A DNA stretch of 64,000 nucleotides from sequence record PP445229.1; one strand, written 5' to 3'. Below are positions 33,254 through 63,217 of this stretch, in pieces. The stretch comes from Escherichia phage EC.W2-6. Both the position numbers and the translations under genes were made by a program. Under the pieces are notes generated by a model, which did not search any database, had not been told where the DNA came from, and saw only the letters and a list, made by a program, of their open reading frames with translations. Numbering within the stretch: the first letter of the stretch is position 1; each line of letters opens with the position of its first letter.

Positions 33254-34036
33254 TTACTTTACACCAATGCTAGCCAGACGTCTGAGCACTGCTTGTGTTT
33301 GTGGACTGTACTGAGAACCTGCTGCATGTGGTGCACTTGCCCTCTGAACTGTTTGAGAAGTGGGAGGTTTACCAGCAAGCATAGCAGCTACCCCTAATAC
33401 TGCATTACCAAAGTTCTGTTGAGGTTTCTGATTTTCGCCTTCCTGCACTTCATCAGAGTAAAACTCTACTGGATTTCCACCTAAAGCACCTGTCTTAGAA
33501 GCAGCAATCTCTGCCTGAGTTGGAGCTTGTGCGGCCTTCTCTCTATCTAACAAGTCAGGACTAAACTGATTGACTGGTTGAACAGCTTGCAAAGCTCCAA
33601 CAGGGTTAGCAATCTGAGAAGCTGCATCACCATAGAAAGGAAGAAAGTGTTTATTGTTCATGGAGTCAAGAGCTTGTGGAGTAAACCCCTTTTTACCAGC
33701 GAACATTTGCTTAGCTCCACCGATACCTTCTGAATAACCAACCATTGCTTTCTTAACATCACCATTAAAAGCTTTTAAGTTATCTCTTATGTAACGAGCG
33801 CCCATATCAATATTCTTTGCTGGGTCAAGTCTATCTTCTAGTTTGTAACCGTAATCTTTAGCCAACCCTTTACTGATCTGCATTAAACCTACAGGACCAG
33901 TTCCAGAGGCCACTGTAGGACGACCACTGGACTCTCTTTGGATGACAGCATGAATCAAAGCAGCAGGAATCCCATACTTCTTTGAAGCTTGCTGTACCAT
34001 TGGGTCTAGTTCTTCGATACCCATTCTGATTGCCAT
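33254..34036 (-). CDS. virion-associated lytic transglycosylase (SLT domain)
   Basis: IQRESSGRP ... GPVGLMQIS ... AYNGG-like SLT motifs (ES, GLMQ). Confidence 0.7.
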   Translation of the reverse strand: MAIRMGIEELDPMVQQASKKYGIPAALIHAVIQRESSGRPTVASGTGPVGLMQISKGLAKDYGYKLEDRLDPAKNIDMGARYIRDNLKAFNGDVKKAMVGYSEGIGGAKQMFAGKKGFTPQALDSMNNKHFLPFYGDAASQIANPVGALQAVQPVNQFSPDLLDREKAAQAPTQAEIAASKTGALGGNPVEFYSDEVQEGENQKPQQNFGNAVLGVAAMLAGKPPTSQTVQRASAPHAAGSQYSPQTQAVLRRLASIGVK

Positions 34037-39936: not shown

Positions 39937-40428
39937 TTAATATTTACCTTCGGTGTAAAGATTAGCTTCTGCAACTCTTCTATTATGAAGACCCTGACTT
40001 CTCTGCTTCTCTCCCTTGACCGTTATTTTATCCCAACGAAGAAATTCGGAATAAACATCCCCCTTAACATCTCCATTGATTACCTTCCTTAACTTAGATG
40101 TGCTCAAAGCCCCACTGCCAACATTGAAGTTGAAAGAAGTGAGTGCATCAAACTCATGAACTAGTAAAGGAACCTTTATGTTCTTCTGAGTAGCACGAAC
40201 AGAGTCTTGTGTGTCTCTATCTAGCAGAGCTAGACAATCCTCTATAGAATACGTTAATCCTTGTCTAACCGGATAACCATTCATATCGCGCGTAGCCCCT
40301 ACACATATAGTCCAGATACCTGCGGAATCTTTATAAGCCTTGGTTCTCATACCCTCATGCTTCATGATGAATTCCATTCCAGCTGGGCTTAAGTTTAATT
40401 GTACAGGTGGCAATGCGGCGTTATCCAT
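39937..40428 (-). CDS. endolysin, T4-lysozyme-like (GH24)
   Basis: FIMKHEGMRTKAYKDSAGIWTICVGAT matches the catalytic E ... D ... T region of phage lysozymes. Confidence 0.8.
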   Translation of the reverse strand: MDNAALPPVQLNLSPAGMEFIMKHEGMRTKAYKDSAGIWTICVGATRDMNGYPVRQGLTYSIEDCLALLDRDTQDSVRATQKNIKVPLLVHEFDALTSFNFNVGSGALSTSKLRKVINGDVKGDVYSEFLRWDKITVKGEKQRSQGLHNRRVAEANLYTEGKY

Positions 40429-54672: not shown

Positions 54673-55261
54673 AATTCTTCTCCTCTGAATAAGAGTATAA
54701 AGGGCACATCATAAGACCTACCCGTAAAGGCCACCTCACATTAACACCCGTGAGAATACCTGTATTCATTTTCGTAGTCTTCTTCAGAGAAGCTACCGTA
54801 TTCATCTTCTGTCATACATCCCTCTGATAAAGTTAAGACATAAAGGGGACGTCATCTTTGATGACTACTTCACATTAAGGCACCCCCATAAAGGCCATGT
54901 CACGTTAAGGCCTATCCATCCATGTGCTGTGTTTAAGCTTACCACATTTACTACATCTCCAAGTGGACTTATAAAGGGTGTGAACTCTTTCATCCCCGTA
55001 AGCTTTGCGTATCCGATAGTACTCATGATCACATTTGAATTGCTTAATGATTAACTTAATTTTCCACATAAGTTCTCTTTCAACCTTATATATAAGAGTT
55101 TAAAATACAGATTTATAAAAAATAAAGATGTATATATCTGTTTAAAATTCTGATTTGACCGAGTGGGGCTAGCCGCTCGCCGCGCGTTTCCTAAAAGGGG
55201 GGAGTCCTCATTTAAAAAAGGGTTATTGGCAATGCCTTTACACCTCCTTCCACGTTCCAAC

Positions 55262-55330
55262 CTTTCCCCGTGCCTACTCCCCGTTATTCTTTCCCCGTGT
55301 ATACCATCCTATTCATTAGCTACCCGTTTA
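55262..55330. repeat. iteron cluster 1 (four YCCCGTR repeats)
   Basis: TTTCCCCGTG, CTCCCCGTT, TTTCCCCGTG and CTACCCGTT within 70 bp. Confidence 0.55.
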
Positions 55331-55635
55331 TTTAGTACCCCTTTAGAGAGTGAGAGAAAGGCTATACTCTGATAAGGCACAATCATAACAGGTCTAATAA
55401 TACCGTATTGTTACCGTTCAGCTCCCCATAGTTTGAATGTAAATAGTTTCAATAGTAATGATTATGAGTGCAATAATGATGTATGTATTAATTAAGTGGA
55501 TGATTGTAATTCTTTTAATAATTGCTTTTATTCTTTTCTTTTTCAGCGTGCCTTTGTGAGCGTAGCGAACGTCTTTGATGTTTGAGTTATACAATTATTT
55601 AAGTGGTATATTATTACCGCACTATCTTGCTATGT

Positions 55636-55722
55636 TTCCCCGTGGTCTACCCTGCGGTTGTATGCTCCCCGTGTCCTGGTCTGTTGGTCTGCTACCCGTA
55701 GCACCAGCGTAACACCCGTAGG
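55636..55722. repeat. iteron cluster 2 (four YCCCGTR repeats, ~25 bp spacing)
   Basis: TTTCCCCGTGG, CTCCCCGTG, CTACCCGTAG and AACACCCGTAG; separated from cluster 1 by an AT-rich stretch. Confidence 0.55.
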
Positions 55723-55836
55723 ATTAGTGTTATAAAGTAACAATAGCTAGTAAGCTGATTCTCTGAGTATGGAAGGTTTAGTAAATTAAATTCCTTTAGT
55801 TTTCAGTGAGTTATAAGAAAGTTAGAAAATAAATGG

Positions 55837-55866
55837 TTGACAGGTTTTTCCTTTATTATATAGTTG
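55837..55866 (+). promoter_or_regulatory. sigma70-like promoter (TTGACA-N16-TATAGT)
   Basis: Near-consensus -35 and -10 hexamers about 45 nt upstream of the 55909 gene; spacer closely resembles the promoter at 58091. Confidence 0.55.
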
Positions 55867-55908
55867 CGATTGTAATTTGTAGTTTTCATCAACCATAAGG
55901 AATATCAA

Positions 55909-56781
55909 ATGTCTAAAGTAGCAATTAACCACTTGAACAAAGCAAACGAAAGCCTTTCCTCTTTAGGCTTAACCGTTGGTAGTCCTGATGCGTGGATGGA
56001 AAACGAAAGCGCACGTAAAGGATTCAAAAACTCTGTAATGCTGGCTTGCTTGATCATTAATTCTACTGCGAACGCCTTACAGTGTGAAGATGAAAGCACG
56101 TTCAAAGAGAATGGCTTTACCGATATACAGGACGCTATCAACTGTTACATTCAGGCAAATTTGGATAGCTGGAATCAGAAAGATTGGCCTGAGTCATGCC
56201 GTGATGTGAAAGCTGAATTATCCCGCTTGTCTGTCATGGTTGAAGCATGGAACAAGAAAAACAAGAAACAACCAATCAAGCCTACTGTTGCAAGTAAGAT
56301 TATGAAGTCTGTTAATCTGGCAAGTTATGCACTGGTTGCAGCTATCGGTGTTAGTGCACTGGTCACGTCTCTTTCTGATAAGGCTATCGCTAGTCCTGCT
56401 CCTGCAACTGATGCGGCTAGTGTCTTCTCTAGTTCCATCAATAAGGGTTGGATGATTTGCAACGGTGCGGATAGTGACGGCAATAATATCGTGCTAAAGA
56501 TGAAATTTAGCAACGTAACAAATGATGGAGTTCTCTTTCAATCTAAAACGTTAGATAATCAGCCTAACAGTGATCTAGTTCTCAAGCGTACTGATAACGA
56601 TGCGGATATGGTGACATTTGGCACTGTACAACGTTATGAAGACGTTAAAGCTGTAACCAACCTAGTGAGCTATGGCCCGATCAATGAGTCGATGATCGCC
56701 ACCACGGTTTACAATAACGCTGATAATGCTGTTTATACTGTTCACGTTAATTTAGCCAACTGCATTAAGGCTAGTAAGTAA
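55909..56781 (+). CDS. membrane protein with central TM helix (290 aa)
   Basis: Hydrophobic LASYALVAAIGVSALVTSL between a helical N-domain and beta-rich C-domain; sigma70-like promoter about 45 nt upstream. Confidence 0.5.
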   Translation: MSKVAINHLNKANESLSSLGLTVGSPDAWMENESARKGFKNSVMLACLIINSTANALQCEDESTFKENGFTDIQDAINCYIQANLDSWNQKDWPESCRDVKAELSRLSVMVEAWNKKNKKQPIKPTVASKIMKSVNLASYALVAAIGVSALVTSLSDKAIASPAPATDAASVFSSSINKGWMICNGADSDGNNIVLKMKFSNVTNDGVLFQSKTLDNQPNSDLVLKRTDNDADMVTFGTVQRYEDVKAVTNLVSYGPINESMIATTVYNNADNAVYTVHVNLANCIKASK

Positions 56782-56805
56782 ATAACCTATTTTGGGAGTG
56801 TAAAA

Positions 56806-57069
56806 ATGGCTATCAAAGAAATTAAGTTATCTAATGGCTTTTCTTGTTTTGTTGGTGGAAGCTCTATCCTGTTTAATACACTTGATGGTCAGATAACGTT
56901 ACCTGTTATCACTTTTTGCAGGATGGAATATCAGCCTCTTAAAGATTGGCTAGCCTTTGCTGATTTTGAAATTACCCGTGAAGACTTCAAATCAATCTAT
57001 ATTGACGGTGATTTATCACTGGCTAACCTGCTCAATCATGGACTAATTAAGGGTGATATTAATGGGTAA
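56806..57069 (+). CDS. hypothetical protein (87 aa)
   Basis: ORF with GGGAG upstream. Confidence 0.4.
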   Translation: MAIKEIKLSNGFSCFVGGSSILFNTLDGQITLPVITFCRMEYQPLKDWLAFADFEITREDFKSIYIDGDLSLANLLNHGLIKGDING

Positions 57070-57316
57070 TGAAACAATCGCACTGATTGACACGCACAAT
57101 TACGGTGGCGTTACGCTCTCCTTTGATGAGTCAATCGACTACACTTATTTGTCCTTTCTAACTAAGGGTGAAATAAAAACTATTAGCTTTCCTGCGGTCT
57201 ATTTAGTACAGGATTATCTCACTATTGGGAAGTATTTAGCCCAACGCGGGATTCTTCTGTCGCTGGAAGAAGTGGAACAGGTTAGCGTAGCATTTTTTGG
57301 CGAGGATAGCAACTAG
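57053..57316 (+). CDS. hypothetical protein (87 aa)
   Basis: Overlapping ORF in operon. Confidence 0.4.
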   Translation: MILMGNETIALIDTHNYGGVTLSFDESIDYTYLSFLTKGEIKTISFPAVYLVQDYLTIGKYLAQRGILLSLEEVEQVSVAFFGEDSN

Positions 57317-57408
57317 TGATTCATGATTATTTTTGGCGTTGCTTGTTCGTTGTTACAGTGGCGTTATTCGTCGCTGATATGCTTTATTCTTATATTCTCT
57401 AACTATAG

Positions 57409-57786
57409 GTGATTATTATCATGGGTATTATCAAATTTGTAGTAAAAGTATTCGTGGGCTTCTTCCTTGTCGTTCTCCTGCTGGGTGTGCTCCTATCGGC
57501 TATGGGTAGCGTTAAGGCTGCAACATTCTCCCCTGCTACGGTGGAAGGTTTACAGTGCACCTATTTGATAGAAAATTATGATACCGGTAAAAAGTCACCT
57601 AAAGTTATTATTTTGCATGTAAATGATTTCGATCATGTGCAATCAGATAGTAAAACTATTCTACTGGTAAATGAAACTACTGGTAAACAAATCACGGTCG
57701 ATCACTTGATGCGCTCATCGTTAACGCTCTTTGATGAGTCCATGAATGAAATGGCATCCGGTAATGGTCAATGTGTAAATCCATAG
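57409..57786 (+). CDS. membrane-anchored/secreted protein (125 aa)
   Basis: N-terminal hydrophobic segment (IIKFVVKVFVGFFLVVLLLGVLLSAMG); two Cys in extracytoplasmic part; terminator downstream. Confidence 0.45.
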   Translation: MIIIMGIIKFVVKVFVGFFLVVLLLGVLLSAMGSVKAATFSPATVEGLQCTYLIENYDTGKKSPKVIILHVNDFDHVQSDSKTILLVNETTGKQITVDHLMRSSLTLFDESMNEMASGNGQCVNP

Positions 57787-57862
57787 GCTTAATCTTTCTC
57801 CTGTATTGTGCCGTAGTCATGCCTATGGTCATAATTTATCTGATGCTTTAAATCCTTCCTGT

Positions 57863-57890
57863 AAGCCTCCTAGTGAGGCTTTTCTCTTTT
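57863..57890 (+). terminator. rho-independent terminator
   Basis: AAGCCTC-CTAGT-GAGGCTT hairpin followed by TTCTCTTTT. Confidence 0.6.
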
Positions 57891-58090
57891 ATGAGGTGAT
57901 TGTATGCCTTACTCCCTTTTAGCTCGTTGTGGTGCGTTACAGGCCGCTTATTATTGCTTTACAAGCCGTTTTCTATGATGTATCACGCGCCCCCGCTCTT
58001 TTACCTCCTGATTTCTTCCGGTGTCCTACCGACAATAAAATAAATTCCTTTATAAAACAGTGAGATGAAAAATAATTTGAAAAAAGGGTA

Positions 58091-58118
58091 TTGACATGAT
58101 TTTCCTTTATAGTAATAT
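58091..58118 (+). promoter_or_regulatory. sigma70-like early promoter (TTGACA-N16-TAATAT)
   Basis: Consensus -35, 16-nt spacer, good -10; preceded by an A-rich UP-like tract. Confidence 0.55.
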
Positions 58119-58296
58119 GAATCCCGTAGTAAGCAGTAAGTAACAACAAGTAGTAAAAACTCCTCGATAGGTGATTAGCATCACGGTAAAAGGCTTCAAC
58201 GGGGAGCGGTAGGAATACCGACAGTAAGACGCACAATGAAGGTGCTACGCTCTTTAAAAATCAGGCTAGAAAGTGAAAATATTCTTAAAAAGAGTA

Positions 58297-58325
58297 TTGA
58301 CACCGAAAACAGCCTGATTCATAAT
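58297..58325 (+). promoter_or_regulatory. sigma70-like early promoter (TTGACA-N17-CATAAT)
   Basis: Consensus -35 with 17-nt spacer; near-duplicate of the promoter at 58600. Confidence 0.6.
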
Positions 58326-58444
58326 AAGCACTCAGTCAGCGATGACTTAAAAAATCCCGCTCTTTAAAAACTTATCATCTTGCCTTTTCGCATAGATTCA
58401 CGCGAGATAAGGGAAAAGAATAAAAGAAGATGATAAAAAAGAGA

Positions 58445-58479
58445 TTGACAAGCTAACACGATGTGTTAAGCTGTAAATG
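58445..58479 (+). promoter_or_regulatory. possible weak promoter (TTGACA with poor -10)
   Basis: Consensus -35 only; no good -10 hexamer at 16-18 nt spacing. Confidence 0.25.
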
Positions 58480-58599
58480 CTACACCGCTCTTTAACAATA
58501 TGAATCATAAGTTAAGCATCACCGCTTAATCTTCAATCAAATAAAGCTGATTGATATATCCTCCCAATAGCGGGAACGACGAAAAAGATTAAAAAGTGG

Positions 58600-58628
58600 T
58601 TGACAGCGAAAACAACATGATTCATAAT
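58600..58628 (+). promoter_or_regulatory. sigma70-like early promoter (TTGACA-N17-CATAAT)
   Basis: Same architecture and nearly identical spacer to the promoter at 58297. Confidence 0.6.
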
Positions 58629-59549
58629 GAGCACTCACTAAGCAAATCACCGCTTCAGTGAAAAGCGTAACAACGGCTAACAGTTGCATAGTGTGAGAAA
58701 GCACACTGATAGATTTACCGCTCTTTAATAATTTAAACATTCTCCTATATCGGTTGAATATGTTAGATGATAATAACCATCGGATAACATACCAGATAAA
58801 ACGGTGTAAGATTCTCTAAACTATCAGAGAAAACAATCTTATAATCCCTTGCTGGAAACGTCACCACTGATAAACGGATTCATTGAGTGTACGCAAAGAT
58901 TTAAGCTAATCGCCCACGGTTAAGGGTAGCGGCGGTCATCGCTAACAAGGCGCTACAGTGAAAGAAGTTAATCAGGGTAGGCAAGCCCGAAGAATTAACG
59001 CTCAATTGAGAGCGGCGGGGAGTGGTTAAAAAGTGGCAAATTGCTATTTAACAATAAGGTTTAGTGTGAACGTTTACGATGTGAATGATTTGAGGCCACT
59101 ATTGATGGCGTACATAGTCAGTTTATGTAGTAAACTTGCCGAAAGATATAAAACGTCAGAACATTAGACGGTCAATGACTCTTTCACAATAGCATCCCGT
59201 TGTGGGCGATGGCTAGTGATTGAGAGTTGATACAAAAGGATAGGCGAGAGCGAAAGCAAAGTAGACGATATTGCCGACGGTTACAATAAACGTAACTAAT
59301 TAGAGTCGGACGCACTGCCTTATTGTGATGATTGATCATCGCTATCAGGTCGGCTTCGTTTATAGCGACTAATTAAAGATACCAGATGAAACATCACGGA
59401 TAAGGGGGCGGCAAGGTTAACTCCTGATAAGACCGCCCCGCTTACCTATAACTACTTAACAACGAGTGGTTATAGTTAAGTTAATAGTGACTTAAACAAG
59501 CTCATAGAGAGCGGGGCAATAGCGCCCTTACAAGTGAAAGGTGAATATC

Positions 59550-60449
59550 ATGGCTAAAATCTTTACTCTGGTTAACGAATCCGGTTTTAATGCTCTGGCT
59601 AACAACATTCGCAGTAATAACGCGGCGATCAAACAAGATGTTTCTAACTTCCTGTTAGGGCACTTACAGCACTTCCGCAGTAATGGTAAGAAGCTGGACG
59701 TATTGCAGTCGGCGGTTGACTTTCTGTTAACTGAACGTTTCCGTGATATGGATGTTATTGCCACTGCAATTACTTTCTTAACTCCTATCAAGTTTAACAC
59801 CGATGCGGCAAATGGTCGTAAAAAGTGGATTAATCTGGAAGGTGAGGCGAAAGCTAAAGAAGACGCGAAAGAAGCGCAAATTAAAACCAAAATGGAACAA
59901 AACCGCGCTCGCTGGTCAAATGCTTTCGAGAATTTTGCTTTAGGCCGTGAAATTGAAGTTGATAATCCTAACTTTTACAAGGGTTGCAATGACAACGTGG
60001 CGGCACACCTGCAAATCCCGGCGAAAAACAAGGAAGATTTTAATCAGGATATTTACGCTTTAGTTGAACGCTTGAATGCAATCCGTATTGAAGCCAAATT
60101 ATTGGCTGATGAGCGCAATGGTGCTACCAGCGATAACACTATCGCCTTAAGTGAAGAAGTGGGCAAAGTTAAGAAGTCATTCGACTCGCTCATCAAGAAA
60201 GTCACGGCCTCAACGGTAGCGATCTCTGATAACTACCTGATGAACGCATCAAGCAAGGAATTAGAATCACTCGATTCATACGCTGATGAAATGGAAAAGA
60301 CTGTTGCAGCTATGCAGGAGAAGTTAGAAAGTCTGCGCGGTCGTATCTCTTCAACGGTTGCTACCCGTACCGAACAAGCTGCGAAAGCAGAAGAGGAAGA
60401 AGTATTGCGTAAAGCGGCTGAAATTATGGCGGCACGTCAAGCGGCATAA
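59550..60449 (+). CDS. hypothetical alpha-helical protein (299 aa)
   Basis: First ORF after the ~0.9 kb untranslated leader; GAAAGG Shine-Dalgarno; terminator downstream. Confidence 0.5.
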   Translation: MAKIFTLVNESGFNALANNIRSNNAAIKQDVSNFLLGHLQHFRSNGKKLDVLQSAVDFLLTERFRDMDVIATAITFLTPIKFNTDAANGRKKWINLEGEAKAKEDAKEAQIKTKMEQNRARWSNAFENFALGREIEVDNPNFYKGCNDNVAAHLQIPAKNKEDFNQDIYALVERLNAIRIEAKLLADERNGATSDNTIALSEEVGKVKKSFDSLIKKVTASTVAISDNYLMNASSKELESLDSYADEMEKTVAAMQEKLESLRGRISSTVATRTEQAAKAEEEEVLRKAAEIMAARQAA

Positions 60450-60473
60450 GTAAGACAATTTAAATAAACATAA

Positions 60474-60506
60474 GGTGCTATCTTAACGGGTAGCGCCTTT
60501 TCTTTT
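60474..60506 (+). terminator. rho-independent terminator
   Basis: GGTGCTA-(10 nt)-TAGCGCC hairpin followed by TTTTCTTTT. Confidence 0.5.
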
Positions 60507-60551
60507 ATCAGTGCATTGATTCAGTGCATTAATCAAAGAATTTAATCAAAG

Positions 60552-60779
60552 GTGATGATCATGTTAATTACGCATACCACGATTTATAGGAATCTTGTCA
60601 ACGGTCAACATTACCGCCTATCTAAAAAATATGGCGTTGAATGTAAATGTATTATTACCGGTGAATGGTATCCGTCACCAATGAAGATTGAAACATTGGA
60701 ACGTGAAGCGATCAGCTATATTATCACGCAAGAAACAACGTTAGGCCGTATCTTAAGAAAGTTGGGATTGAGAAAATGA
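60552..60779 (+). CDS. hypothetical protein (75 aa)
   Basis: ORF with AAAGG upstream; exact start (GTG 60552 / ATG 60555 / ATG 60561) uncertain. Confidence 0.4.
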   Translation: MMIMLITHTTIYRNLVNGQHYRLSKKYGVECKCIITGEWYPSPMKIETLEREAISYIITQETTLGRILRKLGLRK

Positions 60780-61000
60780 TATTCAGTAATAATTTTGGCA
60801 AGTGTCCTATTTGTGAGAAACATCGCAGCACGGGAAACCATCGCAAATGTAGTAAGATATTACAGCGCCAACGTGATAACAACCATTGGGATACTGTACA
60901 CGCTAATCAGCGTAAAGAAGAAGTTAAAGAAATGGCTGTTAAAGCATCCTTTGCCCAATCCACCCGTATTGAACACATCCAAAGGTATCAAGCATTATGA
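60776..61000 (+). CDS. small zinc-binding protein (74 aa)
   Basis: CPICEKH ... HRKC pattern. Confidence 0.4.
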   Translation: MIFSNNFGKCPICEKHRSTGNHRKCSKILQRQRDNNHWDTVHANQRKEEVKEMAVKASFAQSTRIEHIQRYQAL

Positions 61001-61206
61001 TCACTAATATTTCAGAGTTTAAGAAAGCGCCTTCTCGTCTGTTAGGTCGTCGTGTTGTGTATCTTTATAGCAATAAAGGTAAAGCTACAACTGGACGAAT
61101 TACAACAGTAAGTAGTGTTACTAAAGGTTTGCTCAAGTTATGTGTAGCTATGGACGATGGTACAATCCTGCTACGCAGTTGGAAGTCATTTAGTTTACTC
61201 GATTAA
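60997..61206 (+). CDS. hypothetical protein (69 aa)
   Basis: ATGA overlap with upstream gene. Confidence 0.4.
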   Translation: MITNISEFKKAPSRLLGRRVVYLYSNKGKATTGRITTVSSVTKGLLKLCVAMDDGTILLRSWKSFSLLD

Positions 61207-61275
61207 GTTATTTGTTCAAGCCTGTCACCTTGATGGGCTTGCCCGATATAATTTATCACTAAAAGGAATAAGGTT

Positions 61276-61719
61276 GTGGCTAAATCTAAAATCAGCATGA
61301 AGGGCGGGCGTTGTTTTTCTATATCTGAACTGGAGAAAGAGAATCCAAAGGCAACCAATCACGTCAGCAAGCGTAGTTTAAAACGTCGTGCTGCAAAGGC
61401 TGAAGCTGAATCCCATATCCCTTCTAGTGTGGCAAAACGTGTAGGCCATCGTGTCCATCGTGCTGATGCGTTATTGTTAGCCGATCATAAACGTTCTTTG
61501 TTAAAGAGCGGGGGAGCAAAAACAGAAGAGGAGAAGAAGTTAGAAATCTTCTGTAATGGTCGCACCCGTGGTAAACAGAAGTTTAAGGGTAGCACGAAAG
61601 ACCCGCAGGCTTTTCCTAAGACAAGCCAGTGCGCACCTGATGTTTTCTACGCAGACAGTAAACACAAGTGGGGCGTTGAAAAATACATTGATCCCATCAA
61701 AGAGGCGAGGGTAAAATGA
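61276..61719 (+). CDS. highly basic protein (147 aa), possibly nucleic-acid binding
   Basis: Lys/Arg-rich throughout; GTG start with AAAGGAATAAGG upstream. Confidence 0.4.
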   Translation: MAKSKISMKGGRCFSISELEKENPKATNHVSKRSLKRRAAKAEAESHIPSSVAKRVGHRVHRADALLLADHKRSLLKSGGAKTEEEKKLEIFCNGRTRGKQKFKGSTKDPQAFPKTSQCAPDVFYADSKHKWGVEKYIDPIKEARVK

Positions 61720-61889
61720 TTTATTCAGAGATTCTAAATAAAGTCAGAGAGATGCGGCAAGGTGATGCAGTAGTTGATGTTCTGGTCCATCTGGTAGCAT
61801 CCTTGCAAGAAGAAAACGAATTGGTTAAACAAGAAAACAAGGCATTAAGGAAGGCAATAAGTAACCTCTCCAATAGCCTCTCTTTTTAG
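61716..61889 (+). CDS. small coiled-coil protein (57 aa)
   Basis: Not in track; ATGA overlap; leucine-zipper-like heptads. Confidence 0.3.
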   Translation: MIYSEILNKVREMRQGDAVVDVLVHLVASLQEENELVKQENKALRKAISNLSNSLSF

Positions 61890-62040
61890 TACTATGACGC
61901 TCTTTCTGTCGCGTCGTGCCCTCTCCCCATTTGAAGCTTCCGCATAGCCGCCTTTGAGCGGCTTTTTGCGTTGCTGTAAGTGCATTTGCGAGTGTATTTA
62001 TAGCAACGGTCATGTGTTGCTTTCAGGTTTGCCCCGGCTA

Positions 62041-62067
62041 CGGCTGGGGCTTTTTTATGCCCGTAAA
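62041..62067 (+). terminator. rho-independent terminator
   Basis: GCCCCGGC-TACG-GCTGGGGC hairpin followed by TTTTTTA. Confidence 0.65.
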
Positions 62068-62105
62068 ACAGGAGGTATCAAGTTCTGATAACAACGGCAC
62101 AGCTA

Positions 62106-62495
62106 ATGTTGACATTGACTATTTATTATGAGGCAGGGAATCAGCCAACCGCATGTAAGGCTTTAGTTGCGGATACCGTGATAAATAGAATGGCCCAACG
62201 AAAACTGACCGCTGAACAGGTGATAAGACAAAAGAACCAGTTTGAGTGGATTCCGGTACTATTAAAACAGGAGAAACCTTATAAACGTTATGTAAAGCTG
62301 ATTCGTGATAAAAATCCGATGACTAAGCAAGCCATTGGAGAAAGCGAGCGGCTGGCTAAACGTGCCCTTAAGAAGAATTATGTTCCGCTGTACAGTGGGA
62401 CTTACTTTCAGAGTAAGAGCGAAGGGGTGCCAAAATGGTATGCCAATCCTATGTATTGTGGTGATTTAGTATTTGATAATAGCTCTAGGGAATAA
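62106..62495 (+). CDS. cell-wall hydrolase, SleB-like (Hydrolase_2 family)
   Basis: TIYYEAGNQP ... KALVADTVINRM and GTYFQSKSEGVPKWYANPMYCGDLVF parallel the conserved blocks of SleB-type hydrolases as I recall them. Confidence 0.55.
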   Translation: MLTLTIYYEAGNQPTACKALVADTVINRMAQRKLTAEQVIRQKNQFEWIPVLLKQEKPYKRYVKLIRDKNPMTKQAIGESERLAKRALKKNYVPLYSGTYFQSKSEGVPKWYANPMYCGDLVFDNSSRE

Positions 62496-62694
62496 TCACT
62501 AGTGCCAGATTTGACAAACTAAATTCCTTTATAAACCAACCACTTAGTAAATTTATTGAAAAAGATGGTAGTATTCTGGGACTATGGGTAATGCTCTGTA
62601 TATAGACCCTTTGAAAATTTCTTAGAAAATAAGTTTACTAAATATAACTTACTTAAATAATATTACTTTTAATCTCTGATAAAGGGTAAATAAT

Positions 62695-62991
62695 ATGACT
62701 TTAGAAGTATATAAATTCCTTTTTGTAAGCTGTTTAACTATCAGCGTTCTAGGATTTATTGTTCTAAGAAACAAAGCAGCAAGCTGGGAAAGAATGTATA
62801 AATCCCTAGTCCGAGTGGATGAGATGTATAATGAGAAGGTTAAAGTAACACTCAACGATCTTATTATGCAAGTTGAGGACAGAAACAAGCGTCTTCAGAA
62901 CCTCAATCACGAAGTGTTACGCCTTGCTCGTGCTAATGAAGACTTGCGAATAGCTATTGCTAAGCAGCAGGAGATTAACAGTGATAATTGA
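62695..62991 (+). CDS. membrane protein with N-terminal TM helix and coiled coil (98 aa)
   Basis: FLFVSCLTISVLGFIVL hydrophobic segment followed by heptad-rich helix. Confidence 0.45.
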   Translation: MTLEVYKFLFVSCLTISVLGFIVLRNKAASWERMYKSLVRVDEMYNEKVKVTLNDLIMQVEDRNKRLQNLNHEVLRLARANEDLRIAIAKQQEINSDN

Positions 62992-63217
62992 TATGAACAA
63001 CGCCCCAAAGGTTTTAACTCTTGGGGATTTAGAATCAGGTGATGTATTCCAGTTCCCTCTGGATGGGGAGAATTACTATATGTTATCTAGTCAGAAGTTT
63101 GGGACAACAGACAAGAGAAGTTATATCAATCTTTCCTGTGGCGTTATTGCAACGGATGAAGGTAATACAGTCATCAAGAAGGTCAGCAATGCTCGGCTTA
63201 CCAATAAGGTGGATTAA
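62981..63217 (+). CDS. small protein, paralog A of a tandem quartet
   Basis: Shares LGDLxxGDVFQ ... Y ... N-L motif with the next three ORFs; GTG start 6 nt after AGGAGA. Confidence 0.5.
   Translation: MIIDMNNAPKVLTLGDLESGDVFQFPLDGENYYMLSSQKFGTTDKRSYINLSCGVIATDEGNTVIKKVSNARLTNKVD

Follow-up and report, generated by a model that had tools for sequence, protein, structure and literature searches.

An early four-gene operon of Kuravirus coliphages with two predicted periplasmic barrel proteins

The DNA examined here is a 64,000-nucleotide stretch of Escherichia phage EC.W2-6 (sequence record PP445229.1), hereafter the window, which we assign to a Kuravirus (phiEco32-like) coliphage. Within it, positions 55837-57891 are the syntenic orthologue of phiEco32 genes 128-125 and comprise one promoter, four genes and one intrinsic terminator, in the order promoter, gp128, gp127, gp126, gp125, terminator; we name the genes after their phiEco32 counterparts. 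The anatomy is solid: a terminated early transcription unit, two conserved products of which are predicted to be periplasmic barrels with paired cysteines. An original prediction, drawn from the letters alone, had read these genes, together with a hydrolase gene further along the same arm, as an early envelope-targeting programme (superinfection exclusion, receptor masking or localized wall remodelling) rather than as lysis functions. The operon itself is an ordinary phage early unit, uncharacterised and here more sharply described.

Layout of the early operon

By megablast, positions 55000-63000 match Escherichia phages EC.W8-1 and EC.W14-3 end to end at 100% identity, and phiEco32, SU10, YF01, Paul and the BASEL phages Bas90/91 at 91-95%. 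The coordinates of the window are also those of the circularly permuted GenBank record PQ030848. The features of the operon, and those elsewhere in the window that bear on it, are collected in Table 1.

The strong sigma70-like promoter first noticed at this position, which we call P128, is borne out by its conservation across genera: it is kept in phiEco32, Paul and two divergent lineages, and phage 172-1 has a different promoter in the same place. The 8-kb region contains three sites with at least 11 of the 12 sigma70 consensus positions, all intergenic and on the + strand, where Markov-1 randomised sequence would give 0.27. About 670 bp separate P128 from the physical genome end, and the operon is the self-contained early unit closest to the right end. 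The gp128 promoter region (55782-55856) also forms a 72% direct repeat with the region (58036-58110) in which the main early cluster has its first promoter, the two sharing TAAATTCCTTTA...CAGTGAG...TTGACA...TTTTCCTTTAT, which suggests a promoter duplication.

The layout of the operon has already been published as early, with no function assigned to it. The description of SU10 has a single sigma70 promoter ahead of the last gene, followed by four genes and then by three promoters in the next spacer, and reports a "putative terminator downstream of CDS121", that is, after the fourth gene (PMC4281155). The right arm as a whole belongs to the early class in SU10 (PMC4281155) and in phiEco32 (PMC8948821, PMC12276001), and it is from such secondary descriptions in the literature that we take the early timing of the operon. 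Host sigma70 RNA polymerase would transcribe 55837-57891 soon after DNA entry and stop at the terminator at 57863. An Rfam scan of 54.5-63 kb returned no match.

Table 1. Coordinates of the operon and of other features of the window considered in the text (aa, amino acids; TM, transmembrane; SAR, signal-anchor-release)
Feature	Position	Strand	Remarks
sigma70 promoter P128	55837-55864	+	TTGACA-16-TATAGT, A/T-rich upstream; 11/12 consensus positions
gp128 orthologue, 290 aa	55909-56781	+	predicted: residues 1-115 helical module, ~134-156 TM/signal segment, ~162-290 barrel
gp127-like small acidic soluble protein, 87 aa	56806-57069	+	phiEco32 gp127 orthologue
gp126-like small acidic soluble protein, 84 aa	57062-57316	+	start ATG 57062; phiEco32 gp126
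gp125 orthologue, 121 aa	57421-57786	+	predicted Sec signal peptide 1-33 and mature ~88-aa barrel; phiEco32 orthologue
Intrinsic terminator closing the operon	57863-57891	+	AAGCCTCCTAGTGAGGCTT and T-rich tail; hairpin with T-run
gp117 orthologue, single-domain Hydrolase_2 (SleB/CwlJ-type), 129 aa	62106-62495	+	separate transcription unit
Endolysin	39937-40428	-	canonical late, cytoplasmic; PF00959 Phage_lysozyme, T4-lysozyme-type, no SAR/signal; ~21.7 kb from gp117
Holin candidate, 72 aa	40458-40676	-	adjoins endolysin; one N-proximal TM segment
Internal (ejection) virion protein	33254-34036	-	SLT lytic-transglycosylase domain; Pfam SLT 83 bits
Terminal repeat, ~193 bp, direct	55171-55363		inferred single collapsed copy, from megablast ends and YF01 annotation; outside operon

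The two predicted exported proteins

The last gene of the operon had been read as encoding a 125-aa signal-anchored protein. The open reading frame (57409-57786) and the hydrophobic N-terminus both stand, and we revise the length and the mode of attachment. Because GTG 57409 falls within its own Shine-Dalgarno sequence, AGGTGA, the start is more likely ATG 57421, which is used in all relatives and in the GenBank record and gives 121 aa. The N-terminus of gp125 reads MGIIKFVVK, VFVGFFLVVLLLGVLLSAMG, SVKA/A (a slash marks the predicted cleavage site here and below), with a basic n-region and a 20-residue hydrophobic core. By sequence it shows every feature of a type I Sec signal peptide: a charged n-region, an h-region and small residues at -3 and -1. 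Since V31, A33 and A34 of this V-x-A/A site are invariant in 18 orthologues, and since the most divergent orthologues carry a classical 20-aa signal peptide, MKIKLAVCAALFAVSSVSYA/AVF, in place of the long hydrophobic segment, a cleaved signal peptide appears more likely than a signal anchor. A lipoprotein was considered and rejected, as the sole cysteine in any signal region (LAVC, in the gp125 of the divergent type B) is at residue 8 and has Val at -1.

AlphaFold2 models the mature part of gp125 (~88 aa) as a seven- to eight-stranded antiparallel barrel, with a predicted local distance difference test (pLDDT) score of 92-96 per 10-residue block. Two invariant cysteines, C46 and C118, fall in the first and the last strand of this model. 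Because these strands are neighbours in a closed barrel, the model suggests a C46-C118 disulfide that closes it, which would fit the oxidising periplasm. Against Pfam, gp125 gives only a sub-threshold YobH match (14 bits, cut-off 27), and the label "terminase" that it carries in RefSeq, GenBank and PHROGs is a propagated mis-annotation without domain support.

The first gene encodes the 290-aa protein for which a central TM helix had been noted, and we likewise observe a single hydrophobic segment at ~134-156, with a Kyte-Doolittle maximum over a 19-residue window (KD19) of 1.92 at residue 137. The Lys-rich stretch KKNKKQPIKPTVASKIMK precedes this sole segment, which argues for an N-in/C-out orientation. 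After the segment comes a conserved AXA site, KAIA/SP in most phages (type A) and NVQA/KD in the divergent type B. The span, the positive-inside flank and the AXA site together fit either a bitopic N-in/C-out protein or an internally cleaved signal. Many Kuraviruses (172-1, MN05, 4E8, XT32) have only a 163-aa version of gp128. In 172-1, where the N-terminal module is absent, the first gene has its own promoter and encodes MTKPMQMINLASYALVAAIGVSALVTSFPDKAVA/SPAP... followed by the barrel; read in this way, the "TM helix" segment of gp128 is in this phage a predicted N-terminal signal peptide.

Beyond this segment, residues ~170-290 of gp128 are modelled as an eight-stranded barrel after a short helix (pLDDT 66-86 per 10-residue block). 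As in gp125, two cysteines, C184 and C285, are invariant and belong to the first and the last of the predicted strands, and in both proteins the invariant cysteine pairs are confined to the exported domains. The two barrels have only their fold class in common: we rejected the idea that gp125 and the C-terminal domain of gp128 are paralogues, as no sequence or profile similarity between them is detectable. Outer-membrane barrels were also rejected, the strands being 4-10 residues long and lacking the C-terminal aromatic signal, and the cysteine staples suit a soluble barrel. Because neither gp125 nor gp128 has a lipobox or an outer-membrane beta-signal, their barrels should be periplasmic or bound to the inner membrane. 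Export to the envelope is thus well supported, on the signals described, for two of the four operon products.

In our word-indexed homologue search, gp128, gp125 and the hydrolase gp117 occur only in Gordonclarkvirinae-type contigs. Within this group, gp128 and gp125 are kept in Kuravirus, in Nieuwekanaalvirus (EP335) and in Suseptimavirus-type contigs, and the middle genes are swapped or lost. Pairwise ratios of nonsynonymous to synonymous substitution (dN/dS) of 0.04-0.24 for gp128 and gp125 indicate functional genes under purifying selection. These observations bear on the possibility that the operon consists of dispensable accessory genes, niche-specific or redundant, with no effect on envelope, entry or lysis that a laboratory would detect. 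The confinement of the operon to Gordonclarkvirinae, the free replacement of its middle genes and the loss of the N-terminal module in 172-1-type phages are what such genes would show, and most early genes of the arm are short reading frames without known function (PMC9965538). We nevertheless consider this unlikely given the strong purifying selection, the conserved near-consensus promoter and the retention of both exported genes, with their cysteine pairs and cleavage sites, across three genera.

The two halves of gp128 differ in their relatives. Compared with a Suseptimavirus-type contig, identity is 76% for the N-terminal module and 41% for the barrel, against 96% for the large terminase. 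When the barrel (56389-56778) is compared with the Suseptimavirus type across 92 phage records, identity is at least 85% in 17 records and below 60% in the other 75, with none between. In EP335 the N-terminal module is Suseptimavirus-like (dN 0.05), but the barrel, at dN 0.70 from the Suseptimavirus type, is Kuravirus-like. Because the two parts of the EP335 protein are thus nearest to different relatives, the halves of gp128 have separate histories, and the sequences place a recombination joint inside the gp128 gene of EP335. The presence of two barrel classes, along with the different relatives of the N- and C-terminal parts, is consistent with the pattern of a specificity-determining module. 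A comparison of EP335 with type-B phages as a test of covariation with the ejection proteins was dropped, as the type-B genus is Suseptimavirus, in which all of these proteins have diverged.

PHROGs also splits gp128, assigning its N-terminal half to phrog_15368 and its C-terminal half to phrog_21410. The N-terminal module (55909-56253, residues 1-115) represents an unannotated family with a near-invariant MSK-x-A start and near-invariant R36, E60, Y80 and W88. It has no match in Pfam or NCBIfam, and a profile search of PDB gave chance-level matches only. In an exhaustive profile search this was the only part of the operon proteins with remote relatives, the module being recovered in 48 representative proteins of 84-563 aa, Kuravirus-type proteins included. 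The remote members have unrelated, hypervariable, soluble C-termini, many with AHxEALExN-like repeats, and no TM segment was seen in the 38 that were examined. By tblastn the module is present in 145 phage records, spanning Kuraviruses, ~48-kb Klebsiella siphophages, ~150-kb E. coli myophages and Pantoea, Erwinia and Enterobacter phages; it is also found in Serratia prophage-like loci. Its gene is usually the first early gene and, in several prophage-like loci, the first after the repressor/cro switch.

This distribution invites another explanation of the operon, namely envelope takeover or anti-defence. The barrels would then bind host periplasmic or inner-membrane proteins (stress, protease or abortive-infection and other defence sensors) and the N-terminal module would serve early takeover, the aim being to keep the first infection productive and not to shut out others. 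The module occurs in very different phage groups with variable soluble C-termini; its place in several loci, first after a repressor/cro switch or near a genome end, is typical of early takeover and anti-defence genes; and Gordonclarkvirinae are reported to be strongly resistant to the defence systems tested (PMC11990801). However, neither PADLOC nor any annotated family gives a match, no host partner can be named and 172-1-type phages do without the module, whose remote members, having no TM segment, indicate that it is not envelope-directed. On balance we hold takeover to be an unlikely explanation of the operon, if a credible one.

Neighbouring genes and signals

Between the two exported genes lie gp127 and gp126. 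gp127 is the variable slot of the operon: in Suseptimavirus-type contigs an unrelated 82-aa gene stands in its place, and EP335 has no match to it. The gp126-like protein retains 42-85% identity in other genera and is lost in some. At E<=0.1, none of gp128, gp127 and gp126 has a Pfam match, and the "polymerase" or "DNA polymerase B region" names given to gp127 in RefSeq, GenBank and PHROGs are propagated mis-annotations without Pfam support. PHROGs 14176 and 13168 are among the sources of the erroneous names on 56806-57069, 57421-57786 and 62695-62991.

The SleB-like hydrolase of the original prediction, gp117, is confirmed as a Hydrolase_2 protein: residues 13-114 align with positions 2-85 of the 100 in the PF07486 profile at 32.2 bits (gathering score 27, E = 1.7e-7), and all 15 of the relatives that we found either have a precomputed PF07486 match or are truncated. 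E9, in the motif YYE-A-G-N-Q-P, is invariant in 11 orthologues and falls four residues before the Pfam match; aligned by eye, it would correspond to the catalytic Glu of SleB (YGE-S-R-G-E-P). In SleB this Glu is essential (PMC12331253). Phmmer and profile searches of PDB with gp117 did not retrieve SleB chains and gave chance-level matches only. Translation may start upstream, at CTG 62085, to give 136 aa: AGGAGG is present at 62070-62075, and the in-frame CTG-ATA-ACA-ACG-GCA-CAG-CTA, (M)ITTAQL, resembles the extension MLTTAAL of 136-aa gp117 homologues. With or without this extension, no signal peptide or TM segment is found in gp117 (no KD19 window above 1.6 and no 17-residue KD17 window above 1.5). 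A SAR-type signal was rejected too, as the hydrophobic stretch has ~14 residues, no charged n-region and KD17 below 1.5. On these grounds gp117 is probably a cytoplasmic, catalytically competent muralytic enzyme.

gp117 lies far from the endolysin, as originally stated, and on the opposite strand, in the right arm that is described as early (PMC8948821, PMC4281155). It also lies 4.3 kb downstream of the operon, past three or four strong promoters, and has terminator-like hairpins directly upstream at 61946 and 62031; a promoter for the phage sigma factor (gp36) was searched for before gp117 and not found. That the exported proteins and the hydrolase act jointly, remodelling the wall early or masking receptors, has its case in the placement of all these genes in the early arm on one strand, and in the need to explain a third muralytic domain beside the endolysin and the SLT ejection protein. 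Position is the sole link, however. No export signal is present in gp117; between it and the operon lie a terminator, a 1.7-kb promoter cluster, seven genes and the two hairpins; and its identity to EP335 is 89% as opposed to 70% for gp128. Receptor masking in particular is unlikely because the Kuravirus receptors are surface glycans, O-antigen and lipopolysaccharide (LPS) core (PMC11990801), and the barrels have neither lipobox nor outer-membrane signal. We consider such a combined programme very improbable: of the envelope-targeting programme proposed at the outset, the export of two products survives, and the hydrolase, which is without a signal and in a separate unit, falls away as their partner.

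Nor does the contrast drawn there with lysis follow, because the cytoplasmic endolysin and the holin would together free, at lysis, any muralytic enzyme present in the cytoplasm. gp117 would meet peptidoglycan only once the holin permeabilises the membrane, and would then act as an auxiliary lysis enzyme. The 98-aa gp116 orthologue at 62695-62991 (+) has an N-terminal TM helix and a long coiled coil, an i-spanin-like shape; its "DNA helicase" label is a propagated mis-annotation without domain support. EP335 has an "Rz-like spanin" annotated elsewhere, in its middle region.

A holin and an endolysin have been assigned in these phages (PMC9965538). The holin candidate has a ~40-aa C-terminal tail with two cysteines (C46, C59), which is probably periplasmic. 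The topology raises the possibility that one or both barrels act on this tail as an antiholin or lysis-inhibition sensor. The T4 holin T has a single TM segment and a disulfide-containing periplasmic domain, which is bound by RI, an early, secreted, helical protein. A small early exported protein would suit an RI-like role, and the candidate, with one N-proximal TM segment and its two-cysteine tail, has the overall topology of T4 T. The operon proteins, however, have no sequence similarity to RI and are predicted beta-barrels where RI is helical, and no lysis inhibition is reported for Kuraviruses in the literature that we consulted. An early-only sigma70 transcript, shut off by gp79 (PMC12276001), would moreover require a protein stable until lysis. 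We find a role in lysis timing hard to credit.

The non-coding spacer downstream of the operon (57.9-59.5 kb) contains four exact copies of CGCTCTTTAA on the + strand within 480 bp (58248, 58358, 58486 and 58719), interspersed with and downstream of the strong sigma70 promoters at 58091, 58297, ~58446 and 58600. At 58486 the copy reads CGCTCTTTAACAATA, nearly identical to the E. coli rrn boxA, TGCTCTTTAACAA. phiEco32, Paul, 172-1, EP335 and Suseptimavirus-type contigs share the cluster, each having 3-5 copies on the same strand of this spacer. Such rrn-type boxA-like elements follow each main early promoter and are kept throughout the subfamily. Their arrangement points to antitermination of the main early transcripts by Nus factors, whereas the gp128-125 operon has no boxA-like element and ends at its terminator. 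In the paper on phage 7-11 the antitermination strategy "remains to be defined" (PMC8948821), and our literature search found no paper that names boxA together with phiEco32. The elements may explain the read-through of early terminators, a question raised in that paper (PMC8948821).

On the other side of the operon lies the genome end. The linear records of phiEco32, SU10 and YF01 match the window from 55171 to the final base of the record, at two places in each record (megablast), and in YF01 a "direct terminal repeat" is annotated beneath the match that starts at 55171. A 193-bp terminal repeat has been described (PMC4281155, PMC9965538), and the phiEco32 genome has its physical right end at the position corresponding to 55171. 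Short C-rich repeats (CTTTCCCCGTG and similar) at 55246-55304 and 55630-55710, within and just past the terminal repeat, are possibly packaging or end-recognition signals. The authors of the YF01 description report a strongly conserved block at repeat positions ~130-170 (PMC9965538).

Entry exclusion and comparison with known systems

For the exported proteins we favour, with a probability of roughly 0.3, superinfection exclusion acting when DNA crosses the periplasm, as T4 Sp and Imm do but with another fold. gp125 would be exported by Sec and lose its signal peptide, and its ~88-aa mature part would fold as a periplasmic eight-stranded barrel. gp128 would insert N-in/C-out, its periplasmic barrel possibly being freed by signal peptidase at the AXA site and its ~115-aa N-terminal module remaining in the cytoplasm. 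The barrels would be binding or inhibitor proteins that shield the infected cell by blocking the ejection-protein channel and the SLT transglycosylase of later phages. We favour exclusion because it is the characterised role of known early exported proteins of virulent coliphages, because the virion makes a blockable periplasmic channel with an SLT enzyme, and because one of the two barrels shows discrete, recombining types. The channel is formed by five ejection proteins (PMC9509320); the one with the SLT domain opens the wall at entry, and a periplasmic exclusion factor might act on it.

Several points weigh against exclusion. The operon proteins show no sequence or profile similarity to characterised exclusion, immunity or inhibitor families in Pfam, PHROGs, PADLOC, NCBIfam or PDB, the PHROGs matches being to unannotated or mis-named families only, and by Pfam, PHROGs, NCBIfam and PADLOC they are not members of the known exclusion families (T4 Imm and Sp, SieB, Cor, Llp). 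Their predicted folds match generic barrels, the best matches being de novo designed proteins and those in BFVD uncharacterised phage proteins only. The N-terminal domain of gp128 plays no part in the proposed mechanism, and residues 1-120 are modelled with low confidence, at a pLDDT of 41-53 per 10-residue block. Cleavage of the signal peptides, formation of the disulfides and solubility in the periplasm are predicted features. Finally, cryo-electron tomography and fluorescence of SU10 at a multiplicity of infection (MOI) of 10 showed many particles delivering their genomes to each cell (PMC9509320), which argues against strong or immediate exclusion; exclusion that sets in after early expression lies outside the scope of that imaging.

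A bolder version of exclusion would make these proteins a new exclusion or immunity class, disulfide-stapled periplasmic mini-barrels of at least two exchangeable types that jam the channel or its SLT enzyme, with phrog_15368 as an anti-defence or takeover domain; this we regard as doubtful. Kuraviruses are common, broad-host-range, defence-resistant coliphages of therapy cocktails, and their early genes are almost wholly unannotated. That two of the first proteins made are predicted exported barrels gives a handle on the way in which Kuraviruses deal with the envelope of the infected cell. Nothing is overturned thereby, early exported envelope-modifying proteins being a familiar phage theme, and we flag the phrog_15368 module for functional screening.

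Among known systems, gp117 resembles SleB/CwlJ in scoring above the Pfam gathering threshold and in having an invariant Glu before the match. Unlike SleB, which has both a signal peptide and a peptidoglycan-binding domain (PMC12331253), it is a single domain of 129-136 aa with neither, and it differs from SleB/CwlJ in coming from the early arm of a phage of a Gram-negative host. For the exported barrels, T4 RI offers the likeness of an early, secreted, small periplasmic protein, set beside a holin candidate with a single TM segment and a cysteine-containing tail, whereas gp125 and gp128 have no homology to RI and belong to another fold class. The periplasmic lysozyme inhibitors MliC, PliC and PhiA are also among the closest known systems; judged by the Pfam MliC profile, the inhibitory loops and the eight-stranded barrel, the operon barrels are not members of the MliC/PliC group.

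T5 Llp and phi80-type Cor are small exported proteins, early or made in lysogens, that stop further infection; they are outer-membrane lipoproteins that plug FhuA. By contrast, gp125 and gp128 have no lipobox, and the Kuravirus receptors are glycans, the O-antigen and the LPS core (PMC11990801). The system to which our favoured reading of entry exclusion appeals most directly is that of T4.

T4 Sp and Imm are early proteins of the periplasm or inner membrane that hinder the wall-degrading or DNA-entry machinery of an incoming phage. The operon proteins differ from them in having no sequence similarity, in being predicted beta-barrels where Sp is helical, and in having no known exclusion phenotype, with SU10 delivering many genomes per cell at MOI 10 (PMC9509320). 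They resemble Sp and Imm in the early expression of the operon described in the literature, in their predicted envelope location and in the presence of an SLT ejection protein as a possible target.

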